The notes beneath the pieces were generated by a model. It did not search any database. It was not told the origin of the DNA and saw only the letters and a list, made by a program, of their open reading frames with translations. Below, piece after piece: positions 15,882 through 21,673 of a stretch of 64,000 nt of DNA. The stretch lies in NCBI RefSeq assembly GCF_021028975.2, contig NC_059430.1:64542001-64606000 (forward strand), read 5' to 3'. Within the stretch, counting starts at the first letter, position 1. The number at the start of each line of letters is the position of its first letter. The DNA comes from Sphaerodactylus townsendi. Taxonomy: Eukaryota. The position numbers were made by a program, and so were the translations under genes.

Positions 15882-16341
15882 TGTAGTCATCCCCGCAGGG
15901 TCGTCGCTAAGGAATAGGCGAGACGCGGAGGAGGTTTCATCTGGTGGAGAGCGTCAGCAACAGGAAGCCTTGAGGATTTAAGTGATCCTGACAACTCTCC
16001 CTGTGCTGGTCTCTGGCACCTTTTATTAGGGTTTCATTGTGGGCGTGTAAAGGAGGTGGGTAGGGAGATGAGCGGGAGACCGGGAGACCTGGAGATCATC
16101 ATGTGATGCATGATCTCACCCTGCAGCTACGTCTTGGAGGAGAGGCGTGGCGTCTGAGCCTAATCCTCACCTGGGGGCAAGACCATTGTCCCTAAGCCCG
16201 GTGACTGAGCCGAAGACAGTTCATGACCATTGACTCATAGGGGGGGATGAGGAGTGGGGAGTGCAGTCGCGACCAGAGGCCGTGGAGTCCGTTGGCGTCC
16301 CAACGTTCTACCAGGGCTGCTGGGTCAGCAGTGCATTACTA
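15882..16341 (-). repeat. 3' LTR of the provirus
   Basis: Colinear with 21223-21673. The inner end lacks the terminal dinucleotide (..tacta vs ..tactaca). AATAAA on the - strand at 16022-16027. Confidence 0.93.
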
Positions 16342-16354
16342 TCTCCTCCTTTTA
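16342..16354 (-). promoter_or_regulatory. Polypurine tract
   Basis: The - strand reads AAAAGGAGGAGA directly before the 3' LTR. Confidence 0.85.
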
Positions 16355-17774
16355 CATTTTAGAAGGGGACGAGAAATGCTAAGGGGTGATTTAAAGGGGC
16401 AGCTTGTCTCCTCCGCCCGTCTGGTCAAGCTGACGAGCTGCTTGTGTAACATTAGAACTTGGTTGCGGGGTAAGGGGAAATTCGAGGGCTTCTTACACCG
16501 CGTTACAGGCAATATTAGACACACACTGAGCGAAGCAAGATCCGATAGCAGAGGCACACAATTAAACCAATGCAGAGCTGCACAATAGCACTCAACCATC
16601 CTCCCGCCAGCCAGCTCCAGAGGGCTGACCACCAATCAGAGCAAAACATCATATTTCAGATTAGATACAACTTCTTGCAGCTCACGTACTTTCATATGGA
16701 TCAATTGGGAATTATCAGGAAGATTAAAACAACACATATTATGTACATTCTCACAACCTTGGTGATGCAATAACAACAAATAATCAATGACTGACACGAT
16801 TATCTAAAATTAAACAGCCCGAAGTTCCTGCTGCTTTCGGAGGCCAGGGCATCAGAGCAATGGAGGAATGGAGTTGATGGACTTATGAGAACACAGGCCA
16901 ACCCGGCCAATAGTCTTGGTGTTACAGGAAACAAGTCCGGGGACTCCCACAAGGGAAGTTGCGAGGGAAACACATAGCAACTGAGCCGCCCGTGTAAAGC
17001 TCGGCAAAAGTCGGGGAAGGCGGGCGGTGGCTGTGCTTGGCTTCGAGGGTGAAGCCTGAGGCAGAAACGATGGTGTGAAGCGGTAGCAGAGAGTTCCGGC
17101 AGACACAGGCGAGGGAAATGCAGCAACAACAACCGGCAACTTCTAAAATTAAGGCATGCAATAACTTCAGCAATAGTTGGTTCACGGTAAGCAATAAAAC
17201 ATCGCTAAGCGATACATAGGCTGGATGATGTATGCGGAAGGAAGGCAACCCGTGGTTGCATAATTATCCAATGCATGGCTCTTGCTGTTTGACTACCAAA
17301 GCTACAGAAGCGATGGCGTTAGGAGTCCATGGATTTCTCAAGGCGTGAGGAGAGCTACTGATAGTCTTTAGCATTGCAGGTTCAGTGATTCTCCACGAGC
17401 AAGGTTGAGAGAAGCGTGTTCCAACAATATTCAATGACTGAGAACAGCCGGAGAGTTCCAAGGGTTAATCTATCAGGAATGTCCCTGGCTGCAACTCAAG
17501 CTTCAGCCGAGGCGGCAGAGGAGAGAGAATAGCGGTGTAGATGAGGAGCGGCATCAACCTCTGAGCCACAGCTGGCCCAGGCTGCGTTCCCCCCAGGGGG
17601 GCCAGCTAGCGGGGCTGTGATCACTTGTGGAGAAGAATGGGTGTGCTGGCTCCAGAGAGATCCCTCCCATCTCGGCCCAGGCACAGGGGCAATAGGGAGA
17701 CTCTCAACAGAGGCCGGCGGGGTCCGGATCCTCCAGGAGGCCCAGCTCCATCGGAGATGGGGCTGGCCTGGCAT
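16342..17774 (-). pseudogene. env: env (ASLV/avian-gamma-type TM with CX6CC), frameshifted
   Basis: The - strand from 16788 reads in one frame [47 protein letters not shown], resembling ASLV gp37 [31 protein letters not shown]. Upstream are a fusion-peptide-like SLATSLVGVPGLVSCNTKTIGR and LAC; downstream are WWSALWSWLAGGWL and a hydrophobic TM. The 5' boundary is approximate. Confidence 0.85.
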
Positions 17775-19500
17775 GGCGAGCTGGACTCCCTGTATGGAAG
17801 AGACAAGCAGCTTTTCCCCAGAGGGTTTTCGTGCTGGCTGAGTTAGTCCTTATAGATGGCGATGGAAAGCCAGCGAGCCTGAGTGGAAGACAATTTTTTG
17901 ATAGATAGAGAATAGAAGAGTACTTTGGATATGGTCTGCTGGATGAGACCTTGATTGGAGTGGAATGGAACTACTCCCCTTTCTTTGGATTTGTTTGGCC
18001 AAGCACCGTTGAAGCGCCAGTTGGCCCCATTCCGACAACGATCACTTGCAACATTCAAGTTAAGAGATACAAGGCGAAATTGCCCGAAGGCTTAGGAGAA
18101 GGGAGAGGTCATATCCAGGTGGGATGTTTGTTTGTAAAACAATCCCAATCACCGTCTAAGGTGTGGGTTTTACAAAAGCAGCGAACAATTCACAATTATA
18201 GTCATATGGTAATATAGCATCTATAGGAAAGATATAGAAGATGCAAAGAAAACAGTTCCTGGGCTTGAGGTTTGATCACAGGGCAGAATTGAGAGGGTTT
18301 GCAAAACCTTTATCAGAATCCTAGATCTAGGAGTGGGGTCGCGTCAGCCCATTAGAAAGAGGGAGGTGTGTGCAGAAAGGAAAGGAAGGGTTTGGAAGTC
18401 AGCTCTACCTTCCTCGTGTAAAGGACTTTGGCGGTTTGAGCTAAGCTTCCTACCTTCTGGCCGGAGGCTGTGTAAGATAGGTGTGGCTGGTGCCCCAGCA
18501 CTGTGACTAGCCAGGGGGCGCTCAGCAGAGAATGTGGGAGCATGAAAATGATTTTGGCTTCATATGTAAACTTATGCGCCAATGTGGCAGTGTGGAAACT
18601 CAGATGAAGATGAAGGAAAAGGTTCTCAAGGAGAGGTTTGAAGAAGTTTTGAAGGTTTAAACCTTAAGATGGGCGGCTTGAAGCAGGTCCCATCGGTATC
18701 CTGAGAACAACATGCGAGCTGTGTCCCGTTTAAAGGCTAGGATGCTGTGGCGGTGAAACCTTTCAAGGCATTGGCACACATAATCAGAAGGAGAAAAACT
18801 TTAGTGAAGCACAAGAGCATAGCTTAGAAGCAATGGAAAAATCCCCTATGAGGGAAGAAACTTTAGGGTCTCTTGAAGGGGCAAGACATACCAGAATTTA
18901 TACATAGGCATACAGAGCACATATAAAATGCTAGGGAGGATTGCAACTCTGATTTGAGATTTTGCTCTCTCTGAGGGTGCTGCCAGCACCACTGGGAGCT
19001 TTGAGCTTAGGGCTTTGCACAGGCTCAGAGGCTATGAGATCTGGTTTGAACCTTACAGCTGGAAGACCAAGGGGGGCTTCTTCTTCGAAGGACTTTTGGC
19101 TTAAAGGCCATTGTCGCGAGCATCTTCCCCTTTCCATGCCTCATTGTCCCGTAGATTGGCTATAGGGCATTCTGAGAAAGGAGTTCAAAAGCGGCAGTCC
19201 TCTTGGATAATGAAGGCAGCGGACTGGGCATAGTGCCAGAATATTGGTTGCGTTCTCTTCCGTCAGCATTTCCTTCTGTTGCAATTCAGTGACTGTGGAC
19301 TCTGCAGAAGATTTTTTGAAATCGTGCCACTCTGGGGCACTGGCAGAGGCATGGTGACTTTGGAAGTAGAAAGGGTTAGCAGAGCAGGAAGTATAGGCGT
19401 AGGGAGGGAGCAAGCTGGCAAGACCAGCCCAATGGTCTCCGTGGGGATGGGATCACTATACTGAGCTGGGGCAGCGAAGATCTCATGAGGGAACTCGGGG
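17750..19500 (-). pseudogene. pol: Highly eroded dUTPase-pro-pol relic
   Basis: Motif remnants in the expected order, identified by eye: dUTPase-like PIPTETIGLVLP (~19455-19418), RT-start-like QWPLSQK (19113-19093), RNaseH-like PFLSFLHT (~18390), IN-core-like DMT..*AFGQFRLVSLNLNVASD (~18116-18040), IN C-terminal-like WGKAACLFHTG (~17820-17790). No YXDD motif was seen. Confidence 0.6.
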
Positions 19501-19539
19501 AAGGGTTTGAGGAGTGCGGATCTTGGTTCCGGGCTGGGG

Positions 19540-21014: not shown

Positions 21015-21022
21015 ACTCACCC
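21015..21022 (-). promoter_or_regulatory. Major splice donor of the provirus
   Basis: GG|GTGAGT on the - strand, directly abutting the gag ATG. Confidence 0.65.
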
Positions 21023-21201
21023 GGTGTTCCGTCCGGACCGAGAGAGTGTCCTAGGACGCTAGCGTGTCTCTGGATCGCGCCGATCCAGAGGACGAAGGCG
21101 ATAATACCAAAGCGGGTGGTCCCCTGGATACGCCCGATCCAGCCGGACTTGGTATGTGACCCCTTCCCAGGCGACGGTGAGCAGGGTGGAGGTTCGAGGA
21201 T

Positions 21202-21219
21202 TCCCGGGTTTCGGCACCA
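21202..21219 (-). promoter_or_regulatory. Primer binding site, tRNA-Phe
   Basis: The - strand TGGTGCCGAAACCCGGGA, 3 nt after the 5' LTR, is the 18-nt complement of the vertebrate tRNA-Phe(GAA) 3' end TCCCGGGTTTCGGCACCA. Confidence 0.92.
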
Positions 21220-21222
21220 GCT

Positions 21223-21673
21223 TGTAGTCATCCCTGCAGGGTCGTCGCTAAGGAATAGGCGAGACGCGGAGGAGGTTTCATCTGGTGGAGAGCGTCAGCA
21301 ACAGGAAGCGCTGGAGTTCATTGTCCTGACAACTTTCCCTGCGCTGGTCTCTGGCACCTTTATTTGGAACACCATTGTGGGCGTGTAAAGGAGGTGGGCG
21401 GGAGATGAGCCGGGAGACGGCGAGACCTGGAGATCATCATGTGATGCATGATCTCACCTGGCTACGTCTTGGAGAAGAGATGGCTGTCTGAGCCTAATCC
21501 TCACCTGGGGGCAAGACCATTGTCCCTGCGCCCGGTGACTGAGCCAGACAGTTCATGACCCGTGACTCATAGGGGGATGAGGAGTGGGGGTGCGGTGCGA
21601 CCAGAAGGCCGTAGGTCCGTTGGCGTCCCAACGTTCTACCACGGCGCTGCTGGGTCAGCAGTGCTTTACTACA
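21223..21673 (-). repeat. 5' LTR of the provirus
   Basis: TGTAGT...ACTACA termini, adjacent PBS, colinear with 15882-16341. Confidence 0.95.

Follow-up and report, generated by a model that had tools for sequence, protein, structure and literature searches.

A defective, probably class II endogenous retrovirus with an alpha-type envelope in the lizard Sphaerodactylus townsendi

Background

A provirus in the lizard Sphaerodactylus townsendi (assembly GCF_021028975.2, contig NC_059430.1, positions 64,542,001 to 64,606,000 of the forward strand; this whole stretch of 64,000 nucleotides is the window, and all coordinates below are positions within it) raises the question of whether a betaretrovirus-like core is paired in squamates with an envelope of the avian sarcoma-leukosis virus (ASLV) type, and what such a pairing would say about the origin of the avian alpharetrovirus envelope. 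A preliminary description made from the sequence alone had proposed the pairing and called for its novelty to be checked at family level. We conclude that the element probably belongs to a class II (beta-like) endogenous retrovirus (ERV) of a sauropsid lineage, of which it is a defective and non-autonomous copy, and that its alpha-type envelope (Env) is of the Mabuya Mab3-like clade.

A defective two-LTR provirus

The element occupies positions 15882-21673 on the minus strand and has the parts by which an integrated provirus is recognised, namely paired long terminal repeats (LTRs), a target-site duplication, a primer-binding site (PBS) and a polypurine tract (Table 1); it is a real but defective LTR provirus. 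The LTRs are 89 % identical (blastn), the 3′ LTR opening with GA in place of the TG...CA arrangement of the 5′ LTR. The hexamer GTATAG lies at both element ends (rough chance 4e-4), exactly at the boundaries proposed in the preliminary description. Its assignment of a Phe PBS also held, all 18 positions matching a probe complementary to tRNA-Phe(GAA) given in the available text of PMC7810713. Such a primer is no surprise, being frequent in the avian beta-like ERVs termed avibeta2 according to the accessible part of PMC3482500. Rfam and ARAGORN gave no matches anywhere in the window. A solo LTR on the minus strand at 141-604, approximately 70 % identical to the provirus LTRs and flanked by 5-bp direct repeats, shows that a related family has also inserted once, 15 kb from the provirus.

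Table 1 Features of the provirus and its flanks (window positions)
Feature	Position	Strand	Evidence or remark
Target-site duplication, right copy	21674..21679		Identical 6-mer on both flanks
5′ LTR	21223..21673	-	451 bp; TG...CA; AATAAA at LTR position 310
Primer-binding site for tRNA-Phe(GAA)	21202..21219	-	18/18 match; 3 nt inside LTR
gag matrix, beta-type, frameshifted	20780..21014	-	Met-Gly start, CPW motif; Pfam Gag_p10 E 0.027; aligns to turtle P0151; lower boundary approximate
PSAP motif upstream of capsid	20640-20651	-	
gag capsid, frameshifted	19755..20393	-	Pfam Gag_p24 and Gag_p24_C; profile score 164 vs shuffles 35
Nucleocapsid with remains of two disrupted zinc knuckles (by eye)	19542..19700	-	Motifs GKPGH and HW; loose alignment to P0155
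Short dUTPase-like remnant (weak), ~25 codons	19416..19490	-	12 of 25 residues shared with turtle P0013
Possible integrase zinc-finger remnant (weak)	19195..19349	-	3/200 shuffles reach score; stretch picked after inspection
Interior without assignable homology, ~2 kb	17130..19190		Where the rest of integrase, env leader and surface subunit would lie
env: end of surface subunit and whole transmembrane subunit	16344..17103	-	Alpha-type, Mabuya-like clade; many frameshifts
env upstream Cys	17004-17006	-	
env fusion segment	about 16906-16971	-	
env immunosuppressive-domain-like stretch	16771-16807	-	
env CX6CC	16729-16755	-	
env Trp-rich membrane-proximal region	16608-16634	-	
Polypurine tract	16344..16353	-	Seen directly; abuts 3′ LTR
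3′ LTR	15882..16343	-	
Target-site duplication, left copy	15876..15881		Identical 6-mer on both flanks

An alpha-type transmembrane subunit

We adopted the definition of an alpha-type (avian gamma-type) Env found in the available text of PMC3758190 and PMC9967133, which comprises an internal fusion peptide, flanking cysteines, CX6CC and a disulfide-linked surface subunit (SU) and transmembrane subunit (TM). An SU free of CXXC is a further mark of this Env type, but the window has no recognisable SU. In the window TM, CX6CC follows a stretch resembling the immunosuppressive domain (ISD), and Cys codons flank the Pro-centred segment expected of an internal fusion peptide, though in another frame. 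CX6CC excludes the beta-type TM of the genus Betaretrovirus (type B), which has neither ISD nor CX6CC. All parts of the TM quoted in the preliminary description are present, the main string being read in a single frame from 16788, while the Pro-centred segment (16936-16950) and the LAC motif (within 16893-16904) sit in different frames. When the unbroken 55-residue TM core was compared with the PDB, two of the three matches were ASLV TM structures (E 2e-8) and the third was due to chance; a profile built from the window TM and five relatives ranked ASLV (3e-18) ahead of GP2 entries (from 3e-10), syncytin-2 (2e-7) and a TM related to that of murine leukaemia virus (5e-6). A gamma-type TM was rejected on the PDB matches and this ranking. 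A word-indexed homolog search with the same core returned one match among seven candidates. The sequence supports an alpha-type TM, neither gamma- nor beta-type.

Searching the full library with the TM recovered 115 proteins with E-values of 0.001 or lower. Among the top 10 clusters, all looked up, seven could be named (Mab3, Mauremys, Anolis, Lepus, Alligator, Caretta and Sceloporus), and 12 of 20 clusters looked up were named overall, from Mabuya Mab3, Anolis, Sceloporus, Hemicordylus, turtles, alligator, hare, owl monkey, mole-rat and avian leukosis virus (ALV). Of 90 stored proteins in which a usable motif was present, 71 were kept once 19 near-duplicates had been removed, and these formed a tree of 72 rows with the window TM, read with X at the breaks. 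The window TM fell together with Mab3 and Anolis in a clade of 10 rows (support 95/85), and the ALV-containing side (35 rows, most of them unnamed) separated at 100/99. This placement was repeated when the reads were guided by an ALV-side or a mixed profile, so that three of three TM trees agree. Scores of the unbroken fusion segment were 43-73 against 12 Mabuya-like proteins and 14-25 against 12 ALV-side proteins, with a less clean separation for the membrane-proximal region (21-80 against 16-37). In these trees the predicted TM stands closest to the Mabuya Mab3-like envelopes found in lizards, turtles and alligators, the sister group of the ALV-containing clade: ASLV remains the best structure and profile match, as first proposed, while the TM itself is placed outside the ALV side.

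Beta-type markers in Gag and traces of pro-pol

Three of 18 pieces matched Pfam families, Gag_p10 (E 0.027), Gag_p24 (E 3e-4) and Gag_p24_C (E 5e-4), all three E-values falling short of the curated cut-offs. The sub-cut-off Gag_p10 match and a significant alignment to P0151, a stored turtle protein bearing Gag_p10, together identify a matrix of Gag_p10 type; the beta-type matrix motif quoted earlier is present, although it is stitched from two frames. Among 14 stored Gag-bearing proteins the best scores, 234 and 226 (shuffle means near 50), belonged to two sea-turtle models, the first of which shares 119 of 311 residues (38 %) from matrix (MA) to capsid (CA), its score of 234 comparing with 54 for shuffles. 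The lead of the turtle models is owed largely to the matrix. Nothing significant was found for the capsid pieces in PDB searches, and the comparison of alpha- with beta-type capsids is an indirect one through turtle P0151, which matches the HERV-K capsid at E 3e-17 and the Rous sarcoma virus capsid at E 4e-8. A word-indexed homolog search with a swallow capsid returned close avian relatives only (14 of 730), and a feature search with the capsid start gave no usable match. The presence of beta-type markers in the predicted Gag is supported, and from Gag we infer membership of class II, no reverse transcriptase (RT), the gene whose phylogeny and YMDD motif define the class, having been detected.

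In a beta-like pro, dUTPase precedes protease in a frame of its own. The dUTPase-like remnant of the preliminary description survives as a short trace that scores 65 in pairwise alignment against a maximum of 40 for 20 shuffles; by profile its score was reached by 11 of 200 shuffles, and it has no Pfam match. The putative integrase zinc finger did not rise above shuffles when the whole interior was scored, and protease, RT, RNase H and the integrase core had no match above shuffles in the interior, a gap that the preliminary description does not mention. An RT profile score of 52 against a shuffle maximum of 49 came from a gappy alignment that we judged spurious.

Relation to known retroviruses

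The pairing of a beta-type core with an alpha-type Env has a precedent in the caecilian element ERV-AB-Mun, reportedly first described by Chen et al. in 2021, and the Env type is already catalogued across lizards. In the available text of PMC12690878, ERV-AB-Mun of Microcaecilia unicolor joins beta-type gag, pro and pol to an alpha-like env in an ectotherm, so that the refuting condition set in the preliminary description, an earlier account of this architecture, holds at the level of architecture; the caecilian ERV, compared here by description only, differs in having an amphibian host and in being intact, with 202 copies and 325-bp LTRs, and neither PBS nor dUTPase is mentioned in the accessible main text. 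That text counts three earlier class II retroviruses in ectotherms, two from pythons and one from a caecilian. We found no paper on the present family and no lizard provirus with this pairing in the literature covered, most subscription papers and repeat libraries lying outside that coverage. Alpha-like envelopes are described in the available part of PMC13568524 as ubiquitous in reptiles, with a Mabuya-like clade that includes Anolis, Gekko, Eublepharis, Heteronotia, Podarcis, Sphaerodactylus and turtles; that part reports no lizard member of the clade with a class II core. The window TM resembles Mab3 and Mab4 in grouping with Mab3, whereas the bat-lineage relatives examined there carry a gamma-type RT according to the same part. 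An alpha-type env is also recorded in two frog families (bioRxiv 2024.07.05.601823, available text). PMC8922424, PMC12287698, bioRxiv 867069 and bioRxiv 2021.11.23.469661 contributed nothing specific to the question.

ASLV shares with the window a TM with an ISD-like stretch, CX6CC and an internal Pro-centred fusion segment between cysteines, but uses a Trp primer and a non-myristoylated Gag and has no dUTPase; the window has a beta-type matrix, a Phe primer, a dUTPase trace, a sister-clade TM and no match to Avian_gp85. The Gag_p10 matrix, the Phe PBS and a TM outside the ALV side (a placement for which the tests given below are non-significant) do not fit the genus Alpharetrovirus. The avibeta2 ERVs and python PyERV likewise have non-mammalian class II cores, yet their env is gamma-type, not alpha-type, in the accessible parts of PMC3482500 and PMC3758190. 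A further parallel is a class II ERV family of sea turtles (Caretta XP_074986999; Lepidochelys P0147, P0149 and P0151), in which overlapping gene models, 93-99 % identical across their shared dUTPase region, tie a Mabuya-like env to Gag_p10, capsid, dUTPase, protease and integrase. This linkage rests on automatic gene models, and the modest identity over MA-CA separates the family from the window copy.

Several results weigh against a Mabuya-like, beta-cored element. Approximately unbiased (AU) tests do not reject a TM on the ALV side (p 0.094; p 0.125), the TM core taken alone gives no separation (90-141 for Mabuya-like and 108-131 for ALV-side proteins), and the Mabuya-like comparison set was drawn from the top matches. 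Neither the SU (nothing above shuffles in the interior) nor the HERV-K Rec-like env leader present in relatives was detected in the window. The capsid alone scores 131-133 with turtle models and 52-127 with non-turtle proteins, a small margin; a 10-row capsid tree lacked resolution (79/90); and Gag of ASLV, mouse mammary tumour virus and python figured in none of the trees. The AU result, and ASLV being the only significant PDB match, would also suit a basal class II virus from the stem lineage of avian alpharetroviruses, with an env directly ancestral to ASLV gp37 (the stronger form of the earlier proposal), as would the position of caecilian beta/alpha ERVs near alpharetroviruses by both pol and env in the available text of PMC12690878. 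We consider that origin improbable, since all three TM trees lead to the Mabuya-like clade, the fusion and membrane-proximal segments score higher there, the accessible part of PMC13568524 treats the Mabuya/caecilian group with its bat lineage as sister to the avian envelopes, and the immediate predecessors of alpharetroviruses are described in that of PMC3482500 as lacking dUTPase.

Alpha-like envelopes are known on gamma and epsilon pol backgrounds, and here the SU is not recognisable and the interior has no detectable homology, as might be expected had a beta-like gag met the env of an unrelated (for example class I) ERV in a single recent recombination with the 2-kb interior as its junction. 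We give this very little weight, because the better matches of both Gag and TM come from a single sea-turtle family whose parts follow the same order; that common family suggests an old, stable pairing. With RT absent, the copy itself does not decide between a recombinant and a basal origin for the sauropsid class II lineage to which we assign it. The parent virus of such a copy would have been primed by tRNA-Phe, its beta-type Gag would have been myristoylated, and it would have had a dUTPase-protease frame and entered cells by way of a disulfide-linked SU/TM with an internal, cysteine-flanked fusion loop. Most of pro-pol was probably lost, either before integration, the element then being copied with the enzymes of a helper, or afterwards; as assembled, the copy would encode nothing intact and is presumably inert.

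As a probable squamate example of a class II element with an alpha-type Env, the locus adds a host record, and together with the turtle gene models it hints at a wider lineage that would make a systematic survey worthwhile. Its bearing on alpharetrovirus origins is limited because no RT survives to place the core, and the picture of how the avian Env arose is unchanged, this Env clade being already known as broad and old in reptiles. A more speculative proposal, which we regard as possible though doubtful, is that the window copy, the sea-turtle family and the Anolis and Sceloporus envelopes with a Rec-like leader form one widespread, so far undescribed sauropsid class II lineage, which would combine a beta-type matrix, dUTPase, a Phe primer and a HERV-K-like env leader on an alpha-type SU/TM, and was perhaps recently active in lizards; the 2-kb interior of the window copy may then hold a captured host gene. 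If real, this lineage would be the natural outgroup for the beta-to-alpha transition. The leader of an Anolis sagrei Env matches Pfam HERV-K_REC (E 5e-4; one of 51 proteins scanned), and Caretta and Sceloporus Env proteins have leaders that look similar by eye.

Rec-like leaders occur in the reptile alpha-type envelopes P0007, P0013 and P0014, the Pfam match being confined to the Anolis protein. Two other alpha-like Env proteins, P0037 and P0032, begin with a domain of chemokine-like (E 1e-3) or immunoglobulin type at the N-terminus; these could be captures or gene-model fusions.

State and age of the copy

Pairwise alignment of the two LTRs shows 19 indel events and 25 mismatches, only three of them at CpG, with 21-25 CpG kept, while a MAFFT alignment has eight gap runs and 55 substitutions, so the ratio of indels to substitutions depends on gap costs. 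Gag and TM together have 28 frameshifts (17 and 11) against a single stop over approximately 550 codons, whereas 9-16 stops are expected from a simple simulation of decay, which gives a probability of at most 0.008 for two or fewer; as the aligner is able to dodge stops, this imbalance is suggestive only. On balance we lean towards reading the breaks as noise in the local sequence of a repeat that may be young. Genuine decay of an old insertion is the less favoured explanation, though a substantial one: approximately 5 % of aligned LTR sites differ, MAFFT places just eight gap runs beside the 55 substitutions, TM pairwise alignments at a higher frameshift cost contain 1-2 stops, and elsewhere in the window a LINE (long interspersed nuclear element) frame has stayed open over 241 codons. 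Against decay stand the pairwise LTR counts, with their few mismatches at CpG, and the scarcity of stops among so many frameshifts. LTR divergence is unusable as an age here, since many of the small breaks may stem from noise in sequencing or assembly and the mutation spectrum is odd. The U5 ends of the LTRs (15882-15968 and 21223-21309) differ at one of 87 positions where approximately eight would be expected from the LTR average, in a stretch chosen after inspection.

The interior and the rest of the window

Across the interior at 17130-19190, the best matches among 97 stored proteins were for the most part compositional and rich in proline, and proline-rich Gag matches at 17460-17920 were discarded when reversed proteins scored nearly as high. 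On the minus strand at approximately 18700-18830 lies a sub-cut-off match to the three-finger, Ly6-like Pfam family Toxin_cobra-type (E 0.003-0.006), with none in the PDB; it is probably due to chance, dozens of fragments having been scanned, although a captured Ly6-type gene is conceivable here.

The 104 flanking frames yielded no host gene, only LINE RT and endonuclease (four families in three frames). These remnants lie at 42388-42903, 56703-57425 and 58637-59005, and the elements appear CR1- and L2-like, with class labels assigned by eye. A repeat resembling a SINE (short interspersed nuclear element) tail, which we take to be of a squamate, possibly gecko, type, has two copies at 21870-21990 and 45557-45623; a literature search with its motif found no paper. 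These LINEs and the SINE-tail-like repeat fit the lizard host suggested in the preliminary description. Other repeats in the window are a GC-rich array with units of roughly 70 nt (13385-13820), an exact 32-bp tandem duplication (15426-15489) and a near-exact 82-bp duplication (27976-28671).

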